Source: a virus
Lineage: Duplodnaviria; Caudoviricetes
Virus record (IMG/VR): IMGVR_UViG_3300005764_000034
Span: 1-43,002 of that record
Strand: one strand, 5' to 3'
DNA: 43,002 nucleotides
Shown: piece after piece, positions 1 to 13,793 of the stretch
Numbering within the stretch: position 1 is the first letter of the stretch
How the letters are laid out: every line of letters begins with the position of its first letter
Notes under the pieces: model-generated
What the model was told of the DNA's origin: nothing
What the model saw: only the letters and a program-made list of their open reading frames with translations
Database searches by the model: none
Position numbers and translations under genes: made by a program

Positions 1-4
1 TGAG

Positions 5-214
5 ATGACCCCGGAACGCAAGGAGCAGGCGCAGATCGCCGTGGACATGATCGTCCACGGCTGCGCCGCGCTGGTCCTGATCGCCGCGGCGGCCGACGAG
101 AACGACGACGACGACATGGCGACGATGGTCTCCTCGCTGGAGGAGGTCACCGACGCGATGAGGATGCTGCTCGACGCGGCGAGGGGCCGCGTGGGCGGCC
201 GAAGGATCAACTGA
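5..214 (+). CDS. hypothetical protein (early region)
   Basis: 69-aa ORF with GC3-rich codons; its TGA is the start of repeat copy 1. Confidence 0.6.
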   Translation: MTPERKEQAQIAVDMIVHGCAALVLIAAAADENDDDDMATMVSSLEEVTDAMRMLLDAARGRVGGRRIN

Positions 215-261
215 CCCGCGAGGGAAGCGCCGACGCCGTCGGCGCTTCTCCCTGGGCCAGA
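211..261 (+). repeat. structured intergenic repeat, copy 1
   Basis: CTGACCCGCGA-GGGAAGCGCCGAC/GTCGGCGCTTCTC-CCTGGGCCAGA; degenerate leader box CAGAGGACAAACC before ATG 311. Confidence 0.9.
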
Positions 262-310
262 CACTCAGGGGTCGGCGGTATGAACGCCGGCCAATTCAGA
301 GGACAAACCT

Positions 311-634
311 ATGGATATTGCACGAAAGCGGGCGCGTCAAAACGCCTGGCTGAAGGCGCATCCCGAGACCGCAAGGCGCAACTCCATCGCGTACTATTGG
401 AGGCATCGAGAGAAGGTTCTCGCGCGGGCGAAGGAGCGTCGGAAGTTCCATGACGAGTTGCACGAGGCCGATCCGTCGTACGTGCAACCGCACAAGTTGT
501 GGCGTCTCCGCAATCCGGAAAGGGCCATGGAGCAGAACCGCAAAGCCTTCCGCAAGTGGGCGGCGAACGGTGTGGGCGCAGCATATCAACGCAATCGCCG
601 GGCACGCATCCGGCAGGAGGCACTCAATGGCTAA
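311..634 (+). CDS. basic helical protein resembling the N-terminal arm of phage HNH endonucleases (no nuclease motif)
   Basis: RBS GAGGA; Arg/Lys-rich motifs YYWRHREKVLAR, WRLRNPE, YQRNRRAR. Confidence 0.55.
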   Translation: MDIARKRARQNAWLKAHPETARRNSIAYYWRHREKVLARAKERRKFHDELHEADPSYVQPHKLWRLRNPERAMEQNRKAFRKWAANGVGAAYQRNRRARIRQEALNG

Positions 635-1250
635 CCATGGCTATCTGATCGACGCGGCCAATCGCGAGGTGCGGGAGGTCGAGTTCGAGACCGGCGAGCT
701 GCAGAAGCTCGTCGGCGGTTGGCTGACGACCGCCTGGACGTGGGACAGCGGCGACGTGCTGTTCGTCGACGACGAGGGGCTGCTCAAGGCGCAGGAGCAC
801 TTCTTCCTGTTCGCCCCGCGCCGCGACGGGCAGCCGATGGCCGGCAACGGCATGGTGGTCGGCCCCGAGGTCGAGGACGACGGGCCGCACGGATACCACA
901 ACGACCCGCCGGCCATCGCGCTCGACGAGCTGCGCGGGCTGGTGGCGTTCCGCGACCGCGCCTTCTTCGACGCCTGGGCGGCGACGCACGCCGGCGAGCC
1001 GGCGGTGACGGTGATGATGGTGGGCGACGGCTTCGAGCCGAAGGGCAAACCCGAGGTGTTGACGACGTACGGCGACATCGCGCGGGACATGCCCCGCCCG
1101 GTGATCGGCTACGCCATCGAGTCGGAGGACTTGGAGAAGATGCGGCAGATCGCCGACGTCCTGCACAGCGGCACCGACCGCGAGCGGCACCTCGGCCACA
1201 TGCTGTGGCTGGTCGTCTGCGCGGCGGAGAAGAACGCGATAGGGGGGTGA
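627..1250 (+). CDS. hypothetical phage protein (DUF3846-like)
   Basis: AGGAGG RBS before ATG 627; motifs LQKLVGG and DVLFVDDEGLLK. Confidence 0.6.
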   Translation: MANHGYLIDAANREVREVEFETGELQKLVGGWLTTAWTWDSGDVLFVDDEGLLKAQEHFFLFAPRRDGQPMAGNGMVVGPEVEDDGPHGYHNDPPAIALDELRGLVAFRDRAFFDAWAATHAGEPAVTVMMVGDGFEPKGKPEVLTTYGDIARDMPRPVIGYAIESEDLEKMRQIADVLHSGTDRERHLGHMLWLVVCAAEKNAIGG

Positions 1251-1252
1251 CG

Positions 1253-1435
1253 ATGGCGCCGCATCCGAACGCGCTCGCGACGATGGAGCGCAACAAGAGG
1301 ATCGCCGCCGATTACGCGAAGGGCGGCCGGACGCTGCGGGAGGTCGGCAAGAACTTCGGCATCGGCCCCGAGCGCGTGCGGCAGATCGTCCGCATGATGC
1401 GGCGCAAGCAAGGGATGGAGGCAACGAAGGACTGA
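1253..1435 (+). CDS. small sigma-70 region 4-like HTH DNA-binding protein
   Basis: RTLREVGKNFGIGPERVRQI matches the sigma r4 HTH pattern (TLxEVGxxFGxxxERVRQI). Confidence 0.75.
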   Translation: MAPHPNALATMERNKRIAADYAKGGRTLREVGKNFGIGPERVRQIVRMMRRKQGMEATKD

Positions 1436-1511
1436 CCCGCGAGGGAAGCGGCGCGCGACGCGCCGCTTCTCCCTGGGCCAGAATGGACTGACCAGGGAAC
1501 AGAGGACACCG
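1432..1511 (+). repeat. structured intergenic repeat, copy 2, with leader box
   Basis: CTGACCCGCGA-GGGAAGCGGCGCG/CGCGCCGCTTCTC-CCTGGGCCAGA then AGGGAACAGAGGACACCG. Confidence 0.9.
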
Positions 1512-1515
1512 AACG

Positions 1516-1887
1516 ATGGGCTTGGACATGTGGATGCGGACGACGCGGATCGTGCCGGACGCGGAGGTCGACTTCGACCTGCCGCGCGGCTCGACGCAGG
1601 AGCTGCACTATTGGCGGAAGCACCCGAACCTGCACGGCTGGATGGAGCGGCTGTACCGCGCGAAGGGCGGCAAGGCCGACGACTTCAACAGCGTGTACCT
1701 GCGGCTGACCGGGCGGGACCTCGACGAATTGGAGAAGGCGGTCGAGGGCGACGCGTTGCCCGAGACCGCCGGCTTCTTCTTCGGCGAGAGCGACGGCACC
1801 GAGGCGGCGGGCGACCTCGCCTGCATCGGGAAGGCGAGGGAGGCCATCGCCGACGGGCTGACCGTGCTCTACACGAGCTGGTGGTGA
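1516..1887 (+). CDS. conserved phage hypothetical protein (YWRKH motif family)
   Basis: MGLDM start, ELHYWRKHPNLHGWM, GFFFG and C-terminal YTSWW; follows the leader box. Confidence 0.75.
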   Translation: MGLDMWMRTTRIVPDAEVDFDLPRGSTQELHYWRKHPNLHGWMERLYRAKGGKADDFNSVYLRLTGRDLDELEKAVEGDALPETAGFFFGESDGTEAAGDLACIGKAREAIADGLTVLYTSWW

Positions 1888-2213
1888 TGCTTCTCGCGCT
1901 GCTCCTGCTGGCCGCCGCTCCGCCCGAGGCGGACGGCGCGCTGGCGCCGTGGTTCCACTCGCTGACCGTGCCGGACACGGGCGGCGAGTGCTGCGGCGTC
2001 GCGGACTGCCGGAACCTCCCGGTGCGCGCCGACGGCGAACGCTATTGGGTGCTGTACGACGGCGAATGGGTCGCCGTGCCGGACGACGCGGTACTCGACC
2101 GCGCCGACAACCCGACCGGCGACTACATCGTCTGCGTGCAGCGCGACTTCTGGCGCAACGGCGTGCAGCGCGGCCCGATGGTCCGCTGCCTCGTCAAGCC
2201 GCCTCGCACCTGA
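1887..2213 (+). CDS. putative exported Cys-rich protein
   Basis: TGATG coupling; hydrophobic N-terminus MLLALLLLAAA; CCGVADC and C-terminal RCL. Confidence 0.65.
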   Translation: MLLALLLLAAAPPEADGALAPWFHSLTVPDTGGECCGVADCRNLPVRADGERYWVLYDGEWVAVPDDAVLDRADNPTGDYIVCVQRDFWRNGVQRGPMVRCLVKPPRT

Positions 2214-2293
2214 CCCGCGACGGAAGGGCCGCGCACTCCGGTGCGTCGCCTTTCCGCCTGGGCCAGAACCCAGGGGAAAACAGAGGAACACCG
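2210..2293 (+). repeat. structured intergenic repeat, copy 3, with leader box
   Basis: CTGACCCGCGA-CGGAAGGGC/GCCTTTCCG-CCTGGGCCAGA then AACAGAGGAACACCG. Confidence 0.9.
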
Positions 2294-2297
2294 AACA

Positions 2298-3287
2298 ATG
2301 ACAACGAAGCAACCGCCCGTTTCGGTCAACCGGAACGGGCAGCTTGAGCTGGACCTGACGCGGCTCGCCAAATGGGACGCGTCGGTCGGCCGGGTGCGCG
2401 ACTGCATCCTCGAATGGATGATCTCGTCGCACGACTTCTCGCCGTACATCGGCCGGGGTCTGCCCGAGGCGGTGCGCGCCATGACGTGCACGCAGTTGGA
2501 GGTCGAGGCCATATCGCACTCCGCCCGCGAGGCGGCGCTGTGCGGCAGGCTGTTCGACTTCGGGCACCTGCCGAACGAGGTCATCAAGGAAGGCGCCAAG
2601 CGCGGCGGCAAGCTGTGGGACCAACACGCCCTCGGCATGCCGTTCGCCGAGCCGTGGGTGCTCTACCACACGTGGGAGGGCGGCACGGCGGTCTATCTCG
2701 TCGGCGAGCGTTCCGAGGGCGTCGTCGAGGTGTGCGAGTTCCAGCCGTTCGCGGTCGACGGGACGGGCATCCGGACGCTGGTCGTCGGCGACCGGGCGCA
2801 ATTCCGCCGCTCCGACGGCGACGGCTACCACGCGAGCGTGGTGCCGTTCCAGATGCGCTTCTTCGACGGGCTGCCGCCGGAGCTGAACCTCGGCACGACG
2901 CCCGAGGCCGCCGCCGCGTCGAACTGCGGCGACCCGGTGTGGGCTGCGCTGCTGATACTCAACACGCGGAACGTCGGACGCGAAACCATCCACGCCGACG
3001 CGAAGCTGCAGAAGGCCCGGGCGCGGAGCGGCAAGCCGCCGATCCCGCCGCACGAGCGCATCGACTCGCTGCCGTACGTGACGGCGGTGACGATGCGGGG
3101 CACGGCCCGCGAGCGCGTCGACCACGGCGGGCACCACGCCTCGCCGGTGCCGCACGTGCGTCGCGGCCACGTCCGGACGTACGAGAGCGGCAAGCGGTCG
3201 TGGATCGCCGACACGCTGGTCAACGTCGACGAGGCGACGCGCGGGAACTTCCTGCGGTCGCGGTCGCACTACGAGGTGAAGCCATGA
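2298..3287 (+). CDS. hypothetical phage protein with C-terminal SPxxHxRRGH motif
   Basis: ATG after leader box; HASPVPHVRRGHVRTY...WI motif, common in phage proteins. Confidence 0.7.
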   Translation: MTTKQPPVSVNRNGQLELDLTRLAKWDASVGRVRDCILEWMISSHDFSPYIGRGLPEAVRAMTCTQLEVEAISHSAREAALCGRLFDFGHLPNEVIKEGAKRGGKLWDQHALGMPFAEPWVLYHTWEGGTAVYLVGERSEGVVEVCEFQPFAVDGTGIRTLVVGDRAQFRRSDGDGYHASVVPFQMRFFDGLPPELNLGTTPEAAAASNCGDPVWAALLILNTRNVGRETIHADAKLQKARARSGKPPIPPHERIDSLPYVTAVTMRGTARERVDHGGHHASPVPHVRRGHVRTYESGKRSWIADTLVNVDEATRGNFLRSRSHYEVKP

Positions 3288-3439
3288 GGCTCGTGCTGGT
3301 GCTGTGGATCATGGTGATCGGCTGGCAGGCCAACAATTTGTGGCGCGCGTGGCGGGGCTGGAGAGCAGCCCGACACCGCAGCCACAAGCGGCCCATGAGA
3401 CCTCTGATGCTCACCTTCGACTGCTATCTGCGATGGTGA
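3284..3439 (+). CDS. small membrane protein
   Basis: ATGA coupling to the upstream stop; hydrophobic N-terminus. Confidence 0.4.
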   Translation: MRLVLVLWIMVIGWQANNLWRAWRGWRAARHRSHKRPMRPLMLTFDCYLRW

Positions 3440-3527
3440 GATTGATGACTACGGCTGGGACTGCGCTTCCGGGTGCATATGGAACCCGAGAGCGATCGCC
3501 TCGGTCGCCGCCGCGCGAGGTGCGGCC

Positions 3528-3605
3528 ATGATGATCGTGCTTCTGCTGGAGGTCCTGGTCGGCGCGCTCGTCATCGCGCTGATCGCGACCATCTGGCTTT
3601 ACTGA
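3528..3605 (+). CDS. 25-aa single-TM peptide (MMIVLLLEVLVGALVIALIATIWLY)
   Basis: GAGGTG RBS; its TGA abuts repeat copy 4; absent from the ORF track. Confidence 0.55.
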   Translation: MMIVLLLEVLVGALVIALIATIWLY

Positions 3606-3690
3606 GCGACGTTGACGGAAGCCGCGCCCGCGCGAACGGGTGGCGGTTTCCGCCTGTGCCGCTCCTGGCATGGGAGAACAGAGGGACACC
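3604..3690 (+). repeat. diverged structured intergenic repeat, copy 4, with leader box
   Basis: GAGCGACGTTGA-CGGAAGCCGC/GCGGTTTCCG-CCTGTGCCGCTC then GAACAGAGGGACACC. Confidence 0.75.
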
Positions 3691-3693
3691 TGA

Positions 3694-4260
3694 ATGAACC
3701 GAAGCGAACTGCTCGCCGTCGCGCTGGACGGCGGGGACCTCGCGGGCTGCGACGCGGAGGGGCACGACCTCTCCGGCGCGCAGCTCGGCTACTGCCGCAT
3801 GCGCGGGGCGAAGCTGGCGAACTGCGGGCTGGCCGAGACCGATCTGCACGCGGCCGATCTGCGCGGGGCCGACCTGTCGCACACCGACCTGCGGCTGACG
3901 AACTTCTCCGACGCCGACATGCGCGGGGCGATCCTCGCCGGGCCGGACCACATGGAACTCGCCTTCTTCGGCGGCGCCATCGGCGTCATCGACGCCGGGG
4001 TGAACCACGAGGGCGCGCGCTTCGTCGGCGTGCACCACGACGACGGGTGGATGGTGGCGGTGGCGCGCACCGGGTACTGGTCGATGTGGATGACGATGAC
4101 GGACGCGCTCAGGCACTTCCGCGCCGGCGGCGACGCCGACGCGCTGGCGCGGCTCGACCTCATCAACGAAGGCGGCAGGGCGGCCGACCGCGTCGCGGTC
4201 GACGGCGACCCGGTGCGCGAGGCGTTGGACGACGACTTCGCGGAGGAAGGCGGATGCTGA
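3694..4260 (+). CDS. pentapeptide repeat protein
   Basis: A(D/N)Lxx repeats: ADLRGADLSHTDLRLTNFSDADMRGAIL. Confidence 0.85.
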   Translation: MNRSELLAVALDGGDLAGCDAEGHDLSGAQLGYCRMRGAKLANCGLAETDLHAADLRGADLSHTDLRLTNFSDADMRGAILAGPDHMELAFFGGAIGVIDAGVNHEGARFVGVHHDDGWMVAVARTGYWSMWMTMTDALRHFRAGGDADALARLDLINEGGRAADRVAVDGDPVREALDDDFAEEGGC

Positions 4261-4481
4261 GCGTGTCGACGATCCTCGGCAACCTGCTGACCAACCTGCT
4301 CGACGAGAACACGCAGTACGTGCTGGTCGCCGTCGACCCGGAAGGGGAACTCGGCGGCGAGCACGGCGTGGCCGTCACCAACGTCCCCGACAAGGACGAG
4401 GTCGCGAACATCCTGCGCGAGGCCGCCGAGGCGATGAGGACCGGCATCCCGCGACGGAGGGACCGGCCGCCGCAGAACTGA
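4254..4481 (+). CDS. hypothetical protein
   Basis: overlapping ATG with GGAGG upstream; its stop is the TGA of repeat copy 5. Confidence 0.6.
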   Translation: MLSVSTILGNLLTNLLDENTQYVLVAVDPEGELGGEHGVAVTNVPDKDEVANILREAAEAMRTGIPRRRDRPPQN

Positions 4482-4565
4482 CCCGCGACCGGAGGGCGCG
4501 CGCCGCGAGGCGCGACGCCTTCCGGCCTGGGCCAGATGGACTGATCCGGGAACAGAGGAACACCG
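4478..4565 (+). repeat. structured intergenic repeat, copy 5, with leader box
   Basis: CTGACCCGCGA-CCGGAGGGCG/CGCCTTCCGG-CCTGGGCCAGA with GCGA tetraloop, then GGGAACAGAGGAACACCG. Confidence 0.9.
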
Positions 4566-4570
4566 AAAAC

Positions 4571-5206
4571 ATGGACAGAAAAGACATGCCAAAGGCGCGC
4601 CGCGCGTCCGCCGGCAAGGGCCGTTGGCGCGCGCAGACCGAGCACGACATGGCGTTCGCCGACGCGATGCTGGTCGAGACCGGCCGCGTGCTGCCGATGT
4701 TCGTCATCCACTCGGCGAAGGCGTCGTACGCCGTGCTGACCGGGTGGCGCGACGCCGACGACAAGCTCGCCGTCGCGCGGGTCATCAAGCTGTTCTGCAT
4801 CGCCAAGAACGCCGAGGCCCTGTCGTTCGTGGCCGAGGCATGGTCGGCGGCGATGCGGCGCAGGATCGGCGAGAGCGAGGCGGAGTTCGAGGAGCGCGCG
4901 ACCTCGCTCGCGCCGTCCGAGCGCGAGGACCGCGAGGAGGTCATCATCGCGGAGACCTCGTGGCGGGAGCGCGGCGAGGTCCGCTCCTTCGCGCTCATGC
5001 GCGTCATCGAGCGCGGCGCCGACGGCAAGCCGTCCGGCACGACGGCCGGGCCGCTGCCGGACGCCGACGCGATCGAGAGCTGGCGGAGCCGATGGGCCGA
5101 CCTGCTGCCGGAGCGCGCGCCGCGGCCGATGGAGGTGGCGATGGCGGAGCTGCTGCTGAGGGCGATGCCGGGCACGGGGATCACGGAGATCGCCCGTGAC
5201 AACTGA
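4571..5206 (+). CDS. hypothetical protein
   Basis: ATG after leader box; FVAEAW and SEREDREEVII motifs. Confidence 0.7.
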   Translation: MDRKDMPKARRASAGKGRWRAQTEHDMAFADAMLVETGRVLPMFVIHSAKASYAVLTGWRDADDKLAVARVIKLFCIAKNAEALSFVAEAWSAAMRRRIGESEAEFEERATSLAPSEREDREEVIIAETSWRERGEVRSFALMRVIERGADGKPSGTTAGPLPDADAIESWRSRWADLLPERAPRPMEVAMAELLLRAMPGTGITEIARDN

Positions 5207-5444
5207 CGTCGGGCGCGAGCTGCGCCCGGACGAGCTGCGGCCGAGGTCCATCGTCGTCGTGCATCCGCCCGGCTCGCCGGGCGTGCTGCTGACGATGTGG
5301 GTGCTCGCCGCGAACGGCGGCTACGTCACCTTCTACTCGGGGGTGACGAACACCGCCGTGGTCAACCGGATACGCGGCGACGGGAAGCTGGTCGACGACC
5401 GCGACCGCGTCGTGCGCGTGTTCGAGTACCTTGGGGAGCCCTGA
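5196..5444 (+). CDS. hypothetical protein
   Basis: GTG start with GGAG upstream; coupled to both neighbours. Confidence 0.6.
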   Translation: MTTDVGRELRPDELRPRSIVVVHPPGSPGVLLTMWVLAANGGYVTFYSGVTNTAVVNRIRGDGKLVDDRDRVVRVFEYLGEP

Positions 5445-5653
5445 TGCTGAACGAGAACCGCGTGCTCGACATCATCTTCGCCGAACTGCGGCGGATCGAC
5501 GTGAGGAGGCCGGACCCGCTGTCGCGCGAGATGCGCGCGTACCGCGAGGCCGCGCGACGGATAAGCCAGGAGGCCATGAGCGAACAGCGGCAGGCGGCGC
5601 GGACGGCGTCGCTCGCCGGCTTCGTGGTGACGAGGGGCCGGACGAGGCTCTGA
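5444..5653 (+). CDS. hypothetical protein
   Basis: TGATG coupling; its stop is the TGA of repeat copy 6. Confidence 0.55.
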   Translation: MLNENRVLDIIFAELRRIDVRRPDPLSREMRAYREAARRISQEAMSEQRQAARTASLAGFVVTRGRTRL

Positions 5654-5736
5654 CCCGCGAGGGTAGGGGATGGCGATGACAACCATCCCTTGCTCCCTGG
5701 GCCAGATGGACTGGGACAGGAAACAGAGGAGCACCG
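5650..5736 (+). repeat. structured intergenic repeat, copy 6, with leader box
   Basis: CTGACCCGCGA-GGGTAGGGGATGG/CCATCCCTTGCTC-CCTGGGCCAGA then GGAAACAGAGGAGCACCG. Confidence 0.9.
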
Positions 5737-5740
5737 AAAG

Positions 5741-6130
5741 ATGCCATTCGACGCTACACCAGTAGAGGCACCGGTAGAGGATACCGCGCTGACCAAGGCG
5801 TTGATCGCTGGCAAGGCGATGATCGCCGACAAGAACCGATGGACGAAGCACAGCGAGCAGGCGTGGGACAAAACGCGCGAGCAGTTCCGCTACTGCGCCA
5901 TCGGCGCGATCCGTTACGGCACGCGCGAGCGGTTCCGCGCCATCGGCGCGATCCGCCACGGCGGCACCGGGGACGCTATCGCGATGGACGCCATCAACTT
6001 TCTCAGTGAGGTGGCGCTGGACCTATGCGGCACGACGGCGCCGGACTTCAACGACCGGCCGACCACCGGGCACCTCATGGTGCTGCGGCTGTTCGACAAG
6101 GCGATCGAGCGGAGCCGGCTATCCGGCTGA
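5741..6130 (+). CDS. hypothetical protein (DUF6197-like)
   Basis: W-TK...YCAIGAI...FND....H..VL.LFD.AI pattern. Confidence 0.6.
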   Translation: MPFDATPVEAPVEDTALTKALIAGKAMIADKNRWTKHSEQAWDKTREQFRYCAIGAIRYGTRERFRAIGAIRHGGTGDAIAMDAINFLSEVALDLCGTTAPDFNDRPTTGHLMVLRLFDKAIERSRLSG

Positions 6131-6214
6131 CCCGCGACGGAAGGGCCACCGCGCAACGCGCGGTGCGCCTTTCCGCCTGGGCCAGACACGGCACGGGGGA
6201 ACAGAGGAGACACC
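6127..6214 (+). repeat. structured intergenic repeat, copy 7, with leader box
   Basis: CTGACCCGCGA-CGGAAGGGC/GCCTTTCCG-CCTGGGCCAGA then GGGAACAGAGGAGACACC. Confidence 0.9.
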
Positions 6215-6215
6215 T

Positions 6216-6587
6216 ATGACGATCAGACCACACGGGCCGCGCAAAGGCGGTCCGGTGCTGCGCGTCGTCGCGTCCGCCGAGGACGCGGCGGTGCCGGCGA
6301 AGGAGCCGAAGCGATGGCAGGGGACCGACCCGGTCTTCTTCCACCGCAGCCAGGTGAGGATAGGCACCGTGCTGCGCTGCTTCGGGCGGATCGACCACGG
6401 CGCGCTGTGGCGCGTCGTCGAGATCAAGACCTATCTGACCGGCCGACGCGGCGGCACCTACACGCGGCGGCTCGGCGAGGCGCGGCGGCTCGACGACGAG
6501 GTGGTGCTGAACCGCGTCGGGTCGAACGAGAACCGCTCCATGCGGTTCGCCAACCTGTCGTACTCGGCGATCTGGAGGATCGAATGA
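6216..6587 (+). CDS. hypothetical protein
   Basis: ATG after leader box. Confidence 0.65.
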   Translation: MTIRPHGPRKGGPVLRVVASAEDAAVPAKEPKRWQGTDPVFFHRSQVRIGTVLRCFGRIDHGALWRVVEIKTYLTGRRGGTYTRRLGEARRLDDEVVLNRVGSNENRSMRFANLSYSAIWRIE

Positions 6588-6769
6588 CGCTCACGTTCGA
6601 GCAGCGGCTGATGGCCGCCGTCTGGATGGTCGGCAACTGCGACACGGAGGAGGACAGGGGGCGGTGGTGGAAGGACCACGGCGGCCTGTGGAACGAGGTC
6701 GCGAAGCGCGGCGACGAGGCGCAGGCGTGGGCAGACGCGGTGGCGGCGGAGGCCGACGCGAAGGAGTGA
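6584..6769 (+). CDS. hypothetical protein
   Basis: ATGA coupling with GGAGG RBS. Confidence 0.6.
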   Translation: MTLTFEQRLMAAVWMVGNCDTEEDRGRWWKDHGGLWNEVAKRGDEAQAWADAVAAEADAKE

Positions 6770-6799
6770 CGCACCGATTGGACCGATTCACGACGACCT

Positions 6800-6845
6800 A
6801 AAGAGAGAGGCCCGACGTGTCCGCAAAACACGCCGGGCCTCTCTC
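6800..6845 (-). terminator. probable intrinsic terminator (minus strand)
   Basis: long stem GAGAGAGGCCCG-x-CGTGT/ACACG-x-CGGGCCTCTCTC, G-U paired only on the minus strand and followed by TTT. Confidence 0.55.
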
Positions 6846-7015
6846 CGTTCGGACGCGAACCTTCTCAAGGGAACAGAGGAACACCGTCGCCGTGACGGCT
6901 CGCATCCGCGCCCAATGTGGCGTCCGGCGCGCCGCGACGCAACCTCGTTCGCACGGAAAGGGGCCTGCACGAGACAGGCCCCCATTTGAGTCGCAGTCGG
7001 GAGGAAACGTCCGCC
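6800..7015 (-). ncRNA. candidate antisense sRNA carrying the complement of the early-gene leader box
   Basis: non-coding convergent region; minus strand contains CGGTGTTCCTCTGTTCCC (6869-6886); hairpins at 6960-6982 and 6803-6845. Confidence 0.35.
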
Positions 7016-7049
7016 GCGCCCTTAGCACGCGCGGCATGACGATTGCGAG

Positions 7050-7463
7050 CTACTTCGGGCCGGCGCCGCCGCCCGGGGTGAAGCCCCAGTAGATCGCGCC
7101 GTTGCTGTCCGAATAGAGGCCCCAGCCTCCCTCGGCCGGCGGCTCCTTGATGACCGTGCTCGGCGGCACCGGGGTCGGCAGGTCAGGCGGCAACTCCGGC
7201 GTCGGCGGCTCCGGCAGCGGGTGCCCTGCGATCGGCGGATAGCCGGGGCCGGGCGGCAGTTCGATGCCGGGCGGTCCCCAGATCGGGAAGGTCGGCGTGC
7301 CGGGCGGGCCACCGCCGCTCGGTGGCTGCTGCGGCGGGATGATCGGTCCGCCGCCGACGCCGAGGCCGGTGAGCGACGCCTCGCCGATCAGCACGACGTT
7401 CTGCGTGGTGCGCGCGAGCTTGTCGTAGAGCATGCCGGTGATGGTGACTTCGACTGCTGCCAT
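7050..7463 (-). CDS. proline/glycine-rich hypothetical protein
   Basis: AAAGGA RBS; PIWGPP and PPIAGHPLP motifs. Confidence 0.75.
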   Translation of the reverse strand: MAAVEVTITGMLYDKLARTTQNVVLIGEASLTGLGVGGGPIIPPQQPPSGGGPPGTPTFPIWGPPGIELPPGPGYPPIAGHPLPEPPTPELPPDLPTPVPPSTVIKEPPAEGGWGLYSDSNGAIYWGFTPGGGAGPK

Positions 7464-7608
7464 GACGTTTGTCCTTTCGGATGGAGGAGGAGTGCGTTCG
7501 TGCGGAGAGGCGAAGGCGGTGCCGCCTTAGCACGGCCCGCGCGCGCCGCCCACCCGAGGAAGCGGAAAGTTCACGACGCGGGTCGGCAGCGTGAGGTCGG
7601 TGCGCCGC

Positions 7609-8093: not shown

Positions 8094-9916
8094 CAGTTCC
8101 CCCTTCTCTGCTGTTCGTGCTCGGCCTGCGAGCCTTCCTCCGCGATGATCGCGTCGATGTAGCGGCCGGTGTGCTGGTCGAAGTCGATGACGCACTTGCG
8201 GCCCGGCGCGCCCCACAGCTTGACGACGCGCGACTTCCACACGTGCAGCTCGACGTGGCCGTCACGCTGGAACACGGTGAGGCCGAGGTCGCACTTGTTC
8301 AGCCAGTGCGCCGCGCCCGCGACGTCGTAGCCCTCCGGCGGCTCGCGATCCTTCTTCTTGCGCTTGTCGGACGGCGGCTTCGCCGGATGCGCGATCAGCC
8401 AGATGTTGCAGCCGTGCCGGCGCGAGAACGTGCGGCATTCGCGCAGCATGTCGCCGATGTACTCGATCTCGGTCCGCGTGCCGCGCTGGTGCTCAAGCTC
8501 GTTGATCGGGTCGATGACCACGTCGGTGACGCCGTCGCGCAGCACGCACATCGCCGCGGTGCCGAGCATCCAATCCATCGTCACGCGCTCCGTCTCCGGC
8601 ACGCCGTGGACGATGCGCACGTGCTTCGCGAGGAACGCCTCGGCCCTGGCGTCGTCCTCCTGCGTCATGGTGTCGAAGCCGGGCTGCGGCCAGAACGGCT
8701 TGCCGATCAGCCACGTCGCGCATTCCTGCTCGAAACGCGATGTCTCGTCCTCGCCCGCGAACACGAGGAAGCGGCGGTCGTATTTCCGGCAGACGTGCAT
8801 CATCAGGTGCCGCATGAACGCGGACTTGCCGTCGTTCGGGTAGCCGGTGAGCACGATCATCCGCCCGTCGGCCGGCAAATGCACCAAGCCGTCGACCGCG
8901 CGCACGCCGGCCGTCATCACGCGCGGCGGCGGCGCTTGGCGCATCCGCGCGAAGTCGCCGCTGCGCGCGCTGTGCACGCCCTCGATGGGGTACGGCACGG
9001 CGGCCTTGGCGTCGACGATTTCCGCGAAGGTGCGCTCGACGCGCAGGTCGGCGATGGCGATCAGCGTATCGTTCGCGTCCTTGCAGCCGTCGGGCCAGGT
9101 GACGGTGCGAACCTTATGCCGACCGAGCCGGCGGGCAAGTTCCTCGTGCCACATCGCGCCGGCCTCGTCGGCATCGCCCGCCAGGATGTGCGTCGGCACC
9201 TTTTCAAGCAGGTCCTCGTGCGTCTTCAATGCGAGGAACCGCGCGCTGTCCGCCCGCGCCATCGTCTTCGACGCGCCATCCCGCAGGGACACCACGTTCG
9301 GATAGCCGGCCTCGTGCATGGCGAGGACATCCGGTTCGCCCTCGACCCAGTACAACGGCCTTGCCGGATCGATGGAGTCGGCGTTGTACAGCACCGGCTC
9401 GCCGCCATCGTTCTCCTGGTACTGCGGGTTCTTTTCCGGGTGCGGGCGGAACTTGAGCGTCGCCAACCGTCCGCCGTGGAAGTACGGAAACACGACCGAC
9501 GGCCGCACGCCGCCGAGCTCGCGGTAGTGGTGGTCCTGCGCCCAAAGGCGGAAATGCCTGACCGTGCGCGCGCTGATGCGGCGGGCGCCGAAGAAGTCGA
9601 ACAGCCAATCCGGCTGCATGCCCGGTTCGCCGGAGCGATCGGCGAACACGGCGCGCTTGCGCGGCTGCGGTTTCGACGGCTTCTCCCATCGCGGCGCGCC
9701 GTCGCGGATGCGGACGTTGCCCTTCCACCCGCAGGTGCCGCGATGGCATTCCCACACCGCGCCCGATCCGTCGGCGTCGACGGTGACGGACAGCGATCCC
9801 TTCTCCTTGCGCGAGCCGCCGCCGCAGCGGTGGCAGTTGATGTGCTCGGTGCGGCCGGCCGCGAGGCTGCGCAGCCGGATGCCCTCGTCCGCGAGCAGCG
9901 CGAACAGGTCGCTCAC
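8093..9916 (-). CDS. DNA primase-helicase (Twinkle/T7 gp4-like)
   Basis: Zn finger CHRC...CHRGTC; TOPRIM WVEGEPD and DADEAG; Walker A GYPNDGKS; VVIDP; LIAHP; start at GTG 9916 (alternative ATG 9946). Confidence 0.92.
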   Translation of the reverse strand: MSDLFALLADEGIRLRSLAAGRTEHINCHRCGGGSRKEKGSLSVTVDADGSGAVWECHRGTCGWKGNVRIRDGAPRWEKPSKPQPRKRAVFADRSGEPGMQPDWLFDFFGARRISARTVRHFRLWAQDHHYRELGGVRPSVVFPYFHGGRLATLKFRPHPEKNPQYQENDGGEPVLYNADSIDPARPLYWVEGEPDVLAMHEAGYPNVVSLRDGASKTMARADSARFLALKTHEDLLEKVPTHILAGDADEAGAMWHEELARRLGRHKVRTVTWPDGCKDANDTLIAIADLRVERTFAEIVDAKAAVPYPIEGVHSARSGDFARMRQAPPPRVMTAGVRAVDGLVHLPADGRMIVLTGYPNDGKSAFMRHLMMHVCRKYDRRFLVFAGEDETSRFEQECATWLIGKPFWPQPGFDTMTQEDDARAEAFLAKHVRIVHGVPETERVTMDWMLGTAAMCVLRDGVTDVVIDPINELEHQRGTRTEIEYIGDMLRECRTFSRRHGCNIWLIAHPAKPPSDKRKKKDREPPEGYDVAGAAHWLNKCDLGLTVFQRDGHVELHVWKSRVVKLWGAPGRKCVIDFDQHTGRYIDAIIAEEGSQAEHEQQRRGN

Positions 9917-11716: not shown

Positions 11717-12342
11717 TCGTCGTCCGGAGACGGAAGGCTCACCAGTCCGCCCTCCTTCGGCTTCGGCATGGCGTCGCGGTAGTCGTAGAGCGGCCTGTCC
11801 TTGTCGAGCGCGATGGCGGCCATGTGCGCGACCAGTTTCACCTGTTCTTCGTATGCGTCGCTCGCGGCGGACAGGTTCAGCTCGTAGACGGAGAGCGACA
11901 GTTCCAAATGCCGTTGCGTGGCATATTGCCTGCCGACGCGACGGTGTCCGCCGGGCACGTTCGCGTCGGGGATGGTCACGAACGGCGGCAACGCCACGCC
12001 GGCCACGGTGAACAGGTCCGGCTGCTTTGCCTTGGCGACCGCCTTGGTTTCCTCGTCCTTCTTCTTGCCCTTTGGCTTGTCGTCCTCCTCCGGCGGCGGG
12101 CGGACGACGGGACCTTCCCGCCAGATATTGTCGAAGCATTCGCCGACCAAAGCCTGCAGCAGCTCGTCTGGCTTGAACCCCTTGCGGAATTTCGCCTTCG
12201 ACTGCGCCAGCATGCGGCCTTCCTCGCAGAAGCCGCCGAGCCTGTCCTTGTCGTCGATGTAGTCGAAGTACTGCCGCAGGCAGAACAGGTGGATCGTATC
12301 GTACGTGGTGCCGCTACGCGGTGCGCTTGGCTTTCTTGCCAT
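11713..12342 (-). CDS. hypothetical protein
   Basis: GGAGG RBS; MARKPSAPRSG start. Confidence 0.65.
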   Translation of the reverse strand: MARKPSAPRSGTTYDTIHLFCLRQYFDYIDDKDRLGGFCEEGRMLAQSKAKFRKGFKPDELLQALVGECFDNIWREGPVVRPPPEEDDKPKGKKKDEETKAVAKAKQPDLFTVAGVALPPFVTIPDANVPGGHRRVGRQYATQRHLELSLSVYELNLSAASDAYEEQVKLVAHMAAIALDKDRPLYDYRDAMPKPKEGGLVSLPSPDDE

Positions 12343-13243
12343 CCTTGCCTCCCCTTGCGTTGACGATCTGATCGATGACCTGGCCGACCTTGTCGAACCC
12401 GGCCCTGGCGCGTTCATACCTCTCGGCGAGCTCCTCGACACCGTCGCGGAAATACTGCTGCAGGTGGCTGTAGCCGTCCGGCGTGGCGAGCTGCGCGGGC
12501 AGCGCGAGCAGCGCGTCCGACCGGTCGAAGCCGTCGGCTCCGCGCAGCACGGACGCGAGCCCGAGCAGCGCCGAGTCCCGCGCCTCGCGCGTTGCGGCCT
12601 TCCTGTCTTCGATGATCTTGCGAGCCTCCGCGATGCCGATCTCGCGGTCGACGACGCGCTGCGCCAGGTCGCGGTCCTGCTTGCGCAGTTCGACAAGGCC
12701 AAGATCGCGGACCTCCGACCGATCCTTGATCTCCTTCGCCTTCTCGTAGGCGGCCTCGAGTTTCATCCCGCCATCGATGATACTTTGCACGACGGTCGGC
12801 GTGTACCTGGCGACGGTAAGCGCCCTGCTGAGCCGTTCCCCCGTTACTCCGGAACCCTTCGCAGCAAGAACGCACGCCTTCTGTTCGGCATCCGATCCGT
12901 TTTGCAATTTTGCAAAAAGGTTCTGTGCCGCAATCATCGCGAGCTGGCCCTTGTTGGTCTGCCGCCGCTTGCCGTTGACCGACCAGATCAACGCTTCGAT
13001 GTCGACGTCATCGGGCAGCACCTCGAACACCGGCTCGACGCCGGCCTTGTCGGTCGCCGCCAGCCGCATCCGCCCGTCGACCAGTGTGCCATCGCTCGAC
13101 ACGAGGATCGCATGGAATTGGCCGTTTTCCGCGATGTCGTCGACCAGTTCGTCGAACGCATCATCCGACAGCGGCGGGAACAGCTCCGCCAGCGGATGCA
13201 CCTTCGTCGGTCGCCAACCCTCGCTTCCCACCACGTCGCTCAT
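12314..13243 (-). CDS. ParB N-terminal (ParB/Srx) domain protein
   Basis: VHPLAELFP...ELVDDIAENG...LVDGRMRLAA...NGKRR. Confidence 0.8.
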   Translation of the reverse strand: MSDVVGSEGWRPTKVHPLAELFPPLSDDAFDELVDDIAENGQFHAILVSSDGTLVDGRMRLAATDKAGVEPVFEVLPDDVDIEALIWSVNGKRRQTNKGQLAMIAAQNLFAKLQNGSDAEQKACVLAAKGSGVTGERLSRALTVARYTPTVVQSIIDGGMKLEAAYEKAKEIKDRSEVRDLGLVELRKQDRDLAQRVVDREIGIAEARKIIEDRKAATREARDSALLGLASVLRGADGFDRSDALLALPAQLATPDGYSHLQQYFRDGVEELAERYERARAGFDKVGQVIDQIVNARGGKDGKKAKRTA

Positions 13244-13256
13244 TGTGTTCCTCCGT

Positions 13257-13793
13257 TCATTCGGCCGCCCACAGCGGCCCGGCCACCGGCATGACGCCGG
13301 CGACCCGTTGCGTGTGCCACAGCCACACCACGGCGGCGTCGGCGGCGTGGTGCGAATTGACCGCGATGCCGCGCCGCTTGCAGAACCGGTAGACCTCCTG
13401 CTTGGCCACGTCCTTGCCGAGCCGCCGCGTGCCCATGACCTCGGCGCGCGCGGTGTGCACGTCGACCTCGGAGAACGCCGCGCTGCACCGCCAGCACTCG
13501 GCGGCGACGAAGGCGCGCAGCGCGAACTGCTGGCAGGCGCTCCGCCAGTTGTTCAGCGCGGGCAGCGGCAGCGGCGCCTCGCAGACGACGGCCTCCGGTT
13601 GCCACAGGTCCATGTGCTCGGCGAGCACGTTCTCGAAGGCGGCATAGCGGGCGCCCTCGCCGCCGACGTGCGGCAGGTGCCACGTGCCGGTCTTCGGCAC
13701 CTTGTCGCCCCGGAGGTCGCCGATGGCCCAGCCGACCGTCGAAGACAGGTCCAGCGCCAGCACGCCGTGCAGCGGCCGGTCGTCGATCCACAC
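13257..13793 (-). CDS. RuvC-like Holliday junction resolvase
   Basis: VLALDLSSTVGWA, VVCEAP, K-x-x-AK, HHAADA. Confidence 0.75.
   Translation of the reverse strand: MWIDDRPLHGVLALDLSSTVGWAIGDLRGDKVPKTGTWHLPHVGGEGARYAAFENVLAEHMDLWQPEAVVCEAPLPLPALNNWRSACQQFALRAFVAAECWRCSAAFSEVDVHTARAEVMGTRRLGKDVAKQEVYRFCKRRGIAVNSHHAADAAVVWLWHTQRVAGVMPVAGPLWAAE

Follow-up and report, generated by a model that had tools for sequence, protein, structure and literature searches.

The c4 RNA of phages P1 and P7 is a processed 77-base RNA, and the c4/CI RNAs, immunity factors of temperate phages, are released by processing from the leader of the very operon under their control. As a phage small RNA, c4 pairs in trans with its own message and stops protein synthesis; what it keeps in check is Ant, a temperate phage's antirepressor (passages of PMC8546580). 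P22 sar, lambda OOP and aQ are also phage antisense RNAs, sar blocking translation initiation (passages of PMC12197685); within the parts of the literature compared here, phage antisense RNAs control one gene or operon each. At the level of the leader, cluster K mycobacteriophages carry the SAS, an asymmetric repeat lying over the ribosome-binding site of 11–19 non-structural genes, in one orientation and mostly before the ATG; four genomes also have one copy that is reversed and has no gene behind it. Its function was left open in 2011 and its associated inverted repeats were judged not to be RNA hairpins; the passages of PMC3203893 used here propose no antisense RNA for the SAS, and the word is absent from the main text. 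The rRNA operon leader combines boxA, boxC and a leader-trailer helix (PMC10250234, in part), and in hammerhead-punctuated prophage operons self-cleaving RNAs flank single genes within long transcripts (PMC3088659, in part). A literature search, largely of open-access papers, returned no description of the system presented below. Here a spare ribosome-binding box lying past the end of an array of boxed phage genes is probably the template of a trans-acting anti-ribosome-binding-site sRNA, which would silence the boxed genes together. Three relatives lend comparative support to the original prediction of one antisense RNA set against many standard leaders. Sequence shows the box, its position beyond the array, its presence in these relatives too and the complementarity, and we infer the later steps.

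The array of boxed genes and its leaders

The window, the whole 43,002-nt stretch of DNA analysed, is a fragment of a myovirus with 69% G+C, its record representing 55% of a complete virus. The minus strand encodes tail sheath, baseplate, tape measure and primase-helicase, while positions 1–6769 of the plus strand hold a block of small genes, mostly without assigned function, which are presumed from the block layout to be early genes. Contig L033 overlaps window positions 1–5806 at 100% identity and record G002 at 100% over 9,999 bases, so that all three sequences belong to one phage. With L033 added, the array begins at L033 3372 and displays 17 boxes across about 13.7 kb, all on one strand, with an ATG 12–19 nt from the start of the box in 15 of the 17. 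Two copies, at L033 8762 and 4558, depart from this layout: behind one box come a further Shine-Dalgarno and an ATG some way off, and the other variant has no start codon, so that the box may have a role beyond ribosome binding.

The four DNA data sets that best match the phage sequence are soil metagenomes, and the 8 runs listed include no RNA run, which speaks neither for nor against a transcript; the closest tail-sheath matches are Burkholderia phages at about 58%. A 329-aa array protein gave no match in 50,697 phage records, the primase used as query recovered no relative, and the exact 18-nt box occurs in 0 other viral records. The sequence AGAGGAACACC, allowing up to 2 mismatches, has 17 matches in the window against 6.5 expected, a count reached in 0 of 100 shuffles; its three exact matches lie at 2282, 4554 and 6875.

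The original prediction described seven standard leaders in the window. The copies are present, but the full array has 17 boxes, the hairpin of copy 4 is degenerate and the box of copy 1 is weak. The leaders are listed with their cofold ddG (kcal/mol) for pairing with the predicted sRNA described below:

211..310, plus strand: leader 1, hairpin and weak box; ddG −0.4, a poor target
1432..1515, plus strand: leader 2, hairpin and box; ddG −10.0
2210..2297, plus strand: leader 3, hairpin and box; ddG −16.4
3614..3693, plus strand: leader 4, degenerate hairpin and box; ddG −8.9
4478..4570, plus strand: leader 5, hairpin and box; ddG −14.5
5650..5740, plus strand: leader 6, hairpin and box; ddG −11.5
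6127..6215, plus strand: leader 7, hairpin and box; ddG −9.7
211–260, 1432–1481, 2210–2266, 4478–4535, 5650–5705 and 6127–6185, plus strand: CTGACCC hairpins

The lower stem and internal loop of the CTGACCC hairpin are constant and its upper stem is free, and it has no Rfam match. Hammerheads occupy the same slot in relatives, which suggests that the CTGACCC hairpins are cleavage sites, either for RNase III or, conceivably, as self-cleaving RNAs of a type not yet described. RNase III as the cutter is a guess by analogy with the sites of the T7 early transcript. The portions of PMC3867540 used here contain nothing on T7 early sites. The hammerhead-like RNAs of the relatives (G001 60753, 61341 and 61736; G003 13613; L044 128 and 671; G005 65731) have variant cores (CCGAUGAG, or an extra base) and lie directly 5' of ribosome-binding boxes.

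The spare box and its predicted antisense RNA

As originally described, an eighth box at 6869–6886 is identical to 4548–4565 of the copy-5 leader over exactly 18 nt, lies in a convergent gap between the stop at 6769 and the stop at 7050, and has no CTGACCC hairpin upstream. The accompanying statement that it lacks a properly spaced start stands for ATG, which is absent, but GTG 6892 is spaced (+19) like the copy-5 ATG. The locus is invariant among the sequences available: contigs X2 and X3 from other runs (over 6500–7277) and X7 from another study (over 6664–6895) display no differences, and the contigs of 8 DNA runs contain no sequence variant in 6770–7050. The features of the gap are as follows:

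6758..6792, plus strand: trailer, the 3' strand of a leader-trailer helix (by cofold) whose 5' strand is L033 3126–3230, upstream of the first array gene
6797..6907, minus strand: predicted sRNA of about 111 nt, opening with an anti-box stem-loop at its 5' end and closing with a GC-rich hairpin and a few U
6800..6846, minus strand: 3' hairpin, with only UUU behind it and no call by the terminator scanner
6869..6886, minus strand: anti-box, reverse complement of the eighth box
6892..7092, plus strand: 66-codon GTG ORF 3' of the eighth box, judged a non-gene
6914..6942, minus strand: candidate sigma70-type promoter, −35 TTGCGT at 6942–6937, 17 nt, −10 CACATT at 6919–6914
6960..6982, minus strand: hairpin upstream of the candidate promoter, fold −19.7 kcal/mol
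7020..7029, minus strand: originally proposed promoter motif CGTGCTAAGG, without a TTG −35 and with a second copy at 7534–7525
7050..7463, minus strand: convergent proline-rich gene bounding the gap, GC3 0.91

Two minus-strand ORFs of the gap, 6798–7037 and 6788–6985, were dropped (GC3 0.70 and 0.68, no matches).

Pattern and protein scans found the leader system in three complete phages, G001, G003 and G005. Six partial contigs (L022, L024, L029, L040, L044 and L045) have the same leaders, but no array end is seen in them. Every phage has its own box variant, and a spare box lies past the last array gene in all four phages whose array end is covered. The spare box of G003 is the sole one of 11 core boxes without an ATG and has ATC at the ATG position. 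That of G005 is the last copy, with no start codon behind it; three of the 18 core matches of this phage have no ATG, namely the spare box, the leader anti-box and one match inside a gene. In G001 the unit is flipped relative to the array and stands behind a U7 terminator, its other strand reading box, ATG and 11 codons, and thus cannot be cis-antisense to the array. Next to the anti-box, G001 and G003 have in common a 9-mer that occurs a single time in each genome, despite the opposite orientation of the unit and the loss of the reading frame; one nucleotide differs there and destroys the start codon. A homologous unit kept in both orientations fits a diffusible product and not a cis element. 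The four predicted RNAs do not align into a single family: column identity is 47%, and the anti-boxes fall out of register.

Several candidates were set aside. Among 22 loci the leader system was found only in G001 and G005. G007 is a relative that shares array genes (L052 5950–9310), but there the array has a different box and promoters of its own, with a sigma70-like promoter before some cassettes, and the boxA-like match of G007 lies in a coding region. On inspection, L001–L003, L007, L017, L018, L021, L023, L028, L030, L031, L041, L046, all five genome-contig matches L047–L051, L053, L054, L057–L059, L089 and L091 were chance matches.

The original prediction placed the promoter at 7029–7020, where the CGTGCTAAGG motif is indeed present; it is probably the wrong promoter, having no TTG −35. 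The arrangement TTGCGT-17-CACATT at 6942–6914 is the more likely candidate, and 7020–7029 is a possible, not favoured, second promoter. The two copies of CGTGCTAAGG, at 7020–7029 and 7525–7534, flank the proline-rich gene 7050–7463 and are possibly a middle-promoter element. With the candidate promoter at 6942–6914 replacing 7029–7020, the predicted sRNA shortens from the originally proposed length of about 200 nt to about 110 nt. Moreover, termination at the 6960–6982 hairpin, named at the outset as a refutation, would not refute this shorter RNA, the candidate promoter lying downstream of this hairpin, which is likely the terminator of the convergent gene.

A relaxed promoter pattern (TTG, three bases, 16–18 nt, then T/C-A-N-N-N-T) has one match in the 150 nt preceding the anti-box in all four phages, with shuffle P values of 0.036 for this phage and 0.068, 0.092 and 0.103 for the relatives and a genome background of 2.5–7.9% of windows; the pattern was written after three of the four sites had been seen by eye, the G001 site being found by script. 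G001 has an additional match on the opposite strand. A strict sigma70 scanner returned nothing at the anti-box unit in this phage or in the two relatives scanned.

The predicted sRNA folds at −70.0 kcal/mol, both of its ends being predicted only. The predicted +1 at 6907 is the opening base of an 11-bp stem, and a 21-bp hairpin with three U follows downstream. Within the anti-box the 7-nt loop at the apex of this stem, UGUUCCU at 6883–6877, covers the complement of the Shine-Dalgarno core, its bases being 0.8–1.0 unpaired in the predicted fold. An unpaired seed complementary to the target ribosome-binding site is predicted here and in G005, where the anti-Shine-Dalgarno similarly occupies a 7-nt loop on a 5-bp stem, while the predicted folds of G001 and G003 leave the anti-box largely paired. 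At the other end, the 6800–6846 hairpin is likely a weak terminator or a stabilising stem. The original claim that the hairpin (6800–6845) pairs better on the minus strand is borne out (−39.2 against −32.0 kcal/mol, 3 against 0 G-U pairs). Over 6786–6942 the minus strand folds 19.9 kcal/mol better, with 11 against 2 G-U pairs, a difference matched by 0 of 50 background windows. The strand-fold test supports the minus-strand RNA without deciding, because five of the six processing hairpins, which lie on the mRNA strand, also fold better as the reverse complement, though by a lesser 1.4–5.1 kcal/mol. Rfam returned nothing at 6770–7050 up to E 5 and no gathering-score match in the window, L011, L014 or L015.

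Pairing energies were computed with ViennaRNA duplex and cofold, the cofold set-up joining the 111-nt RNA to 115-nt leader contexts. A cofold ddG of −8 kcal/mol or lower is reached by 12 of the 17 boxes compared with 1 of 40 sampled background sites (of 49), and in a second run by 11 of 15 boxes compared with 1 of 60 background sites. Specificity is weaker in the relatives, where 22, 20 and 14 of 60 background sites reach −8. The proposed co-variation of box and anti-box was found, cognate sRNA-leader pairing being the best in all four rows by both duplex and cofold, with a cognate margin below 2 kcal/mol in G003. Co-variation alone cannot discriminate between the strands and is expected wherever a spare box is copied from the leaders. 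The A-to-G variants in the boxes of copies 4 and 6 exist as described, but the argument drawn from them, that G-U pairs would retain the pairing, is weak, because A-to-G also preserves a purine-rich Shine-Dalgarno and a 1-nt-shorter box, which would force a bulge with the anti-box, is as common as the perfect-match box (6 of 17 each).

On the minus strand at 13243–13257 of the window a box-like ribosome-binding site precedes a ParB-like gene (12314–13243). It is the second-strongest non-array partner of the seed (−27.0) and a possible extra target by this modelled pairing. G001 has two boxed genes outside the array, at 9118 and 11320, which would come under the control of the same RNA.

Bracketing of the array, proposed mechanism and alternatives

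All five phages whose array start is covered have a second anti-box ahead of the first box, on the array strand, and it co-varies with the box; that of this phage lies outside the window, in the operon leader. The trailer at 6758–6792 is the only partner of at least 12 bp for the tested 25-nt leader stretch (array strand, 53 kb), and the trailer is the longest leader partner on the array strand in all four phages (16, 21, 23 and 22 bp). The leader strand of this phage, L033 3126–3230, is interrupted by a 60-nt hairpin. Ahead of the leader strand stands a boxA-like motif, clear in G001, G003 and G005 and degenerate in this phage. Between the second anti-box and the first box, G001, G003 and L044 have a hammerhead-like RNA (descriptor matches), this phage has a conserved hairpin (by eye), and G005 has a twister-P1 match (L083 7284–7221, E 0.0057, below gathering score), ahead of which its leader comprises about 500 nt of non-coding sequence. 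Judged by these motifs, the bracketing of the array resembles that of an rRNA operon: a boxA-like leader, a leader-trailer helix and the second anti-box, then a ribozyme or hairpin. The helix partly explains the leader's second anti-box, which in turn supplies the main rival for the spare box.

Of 251 genomes in the class to which G008 (Maricaulis) belongs, 36 contain the same boxA-like motif, and at 6 of 12 loci examined it stands before a 16S or 23S gene. Since it precedes rRNA genes in that class, an alphaproteobacterial host is likely. A boxA-like variant is present in two copies in G110 and in four in G150, and a scan of one such locus, L101, showed no adjoining rRNA gene; these loci may be mobile elements with rrn-type leaders.

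In the proposed mechanism, the host sigma70 polymerase would transcribe the array into one long RNA and would also make the sRNA. The long transcript would be cut at hairpins or by ribozymes, leaving every box near a free 5' end. The 7-nt loop of the sRNA would then seed on the Shine-Dalgarno core and zip to a 14–18 bp duplex that occludes the box, and as the sRNA accumulates array translation would be turned down. Tyrosine integrase (PF00589) is absent from all five records searched, three of them complete, and neither integrase nor repressor was found among the subset of 41 G003 ORFs. Because the three complete relatives have no tyrosine integrase, an early-to-later timer is more likely than lysogenic immunity.

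The leader anti-box could itself be the real regulator, the plus-strand spare box in the array's 3' tail serving as a decoy that offers it an alternative partner. The co-variation of the anti-box with the box in all five leaders agrees with such a role, as does the position of the spare box on the array strand in three of four phages, directly after trailer and hairpin, and no plus-strand U-tract terminator was found here. However, the flipped unit of G001 leaves the array transcript without a sense box, promoter-like motifs lie on the anti-box strand in all four phages, and the leader anti-box is already partnered by the trailer, so that a decoy is unlikely. A little less likely again is an ordinary or decayed cassette leader, which would either drive the 66-codon GTG 6892 ORF or be the remnant of a lost gene. 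The GTG spacing equals that of the copy-5 ATG, the hairpin-then-box order resembles that of real leaders, the G001 copy has its ATG and 11 codons and the G003 copy its ATC, and the internal box at L033 8762 also has no direct ATG. Yet the ORF displays no codon-position bias (GC 0.69/0.69/0.69), its GC3 of 0.69 falling below the 0.87–0.98 of 14 of 15 array ORFs, and has no homologue in PHROGs, the relatives or the protein collection; by composition it looks non-coding, and translation from GTG 6892 had been named at the outset as a refutation of the antisense reading. Moreover, the G005 spare box has no start codon, and a mere remnant would not be expected to turn up at one and the same position in phages that have diverged.

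A minus-strand RNA acting only in cis would collide or pair with the array 3' end, trailer included, insulating the convergent operons or blocking the leader-trailer helix. Such a role accords with the promoter-like motif facing the array in three of four phages and with the weak terminator, which makes read-through into 6792–6758 plausible, but the G001 unit points away from the array and a cis-acting RNA has no need of the box copy that all four phages keep; this reading is distinctly improbable. The boxes might also bind a protein, as an operator or as the site of a translational repressor or nuclease, with the spare box as a titration site. Conservation of the box extends beyond Shine-Dalgarno pairing, and for the SAS repeats a protein site is an option left open in the passages of PMC3203893, but such a site leaves the opposite-strand loop display, the promoters and the leader-trailer G-U pairs unexplained, and it is the account to which we give very little credence.

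The trans-acting sRNA and the leader anti-box could also be joined in a two-layer RNA circuit on one address tag, a layer of leader anti-box and a separate layer of sRNA; this is a tentative and rather doubtful extension. The boxA-tethered 5' leader, freed by the ribozyme or hairpin, would ride with RNA polymerase, its anti-box able to pair each emerging box before finally locking onto the trailer and ending the operon. The separately transcribed sRNA would later silence all boxed messages. If such a circuit operates, a gene shuffled in with a standard leader would inherit the whole programme, and similar reasoning could account for the SAS repeats of mycobacteriophages.

Comparison with known systems

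If the trans-acting sRNA exists as proposed, one RNA acting on the tag of up to 17 interchangeable genes would constitute a protein-free master off-switch, would explain a homogenisation of the leaders beyond Shine-Dalgarno needs, and would give a reading for the SAS repeats of mycobacteriophages. The four natural sRNA-box pairs, differing in sequence, provide cognate and non-cognate sets without a cultured phage.

Like P1 c4, the predicted phage sRNA would pair in trans on the phage's own messages. In contrast to c4, it would be made from its own predicted promoter and address up to 17 targets; it matches no Rfam family, and no tyrosine integrase was found in the relatives. The c4/CI arrangement also differs in position: the unit here, equipped with a promoter-like motif, sits beyond the last gene of the array, and the separate 5' leader anti-box would be the element that fits. 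As with sar, OOP and aQ, antisense base pairing would lower phage gene expression; each of these acts on one gene in the passages of PMC12197685, whereas many genes with a standard leader would be targeted here. The boxes resemble the SAS in being an asymmetric repeat of one orientation at ribosome-binding sites before the ATG (15 of 17 boxes here), but differ in sequence and in host group, the host here being likely alphaproteobacterial, and here hairpins or ribozymes precede the boxes. Similarly to the rrn leader, a boxA-like motif is followed by one strand of a 16–23 bp helix, and the other strand is found where the block ends. Unlike in the rrn leader, about 10–15 kb of protein genes are bracketed, the leader strand doubles as an anti-box, and boxA is degenerate in this phage. 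Finally, the relatives share with the operons of PMC3088659 the presence of self-cleaving motifs, hammerhead- and twister-like RNAs occupying the slot of the CTGACCC hairpin; the parts of that paper used here describe no shared leader box or antisense partner, and the window itself has hairpins only.
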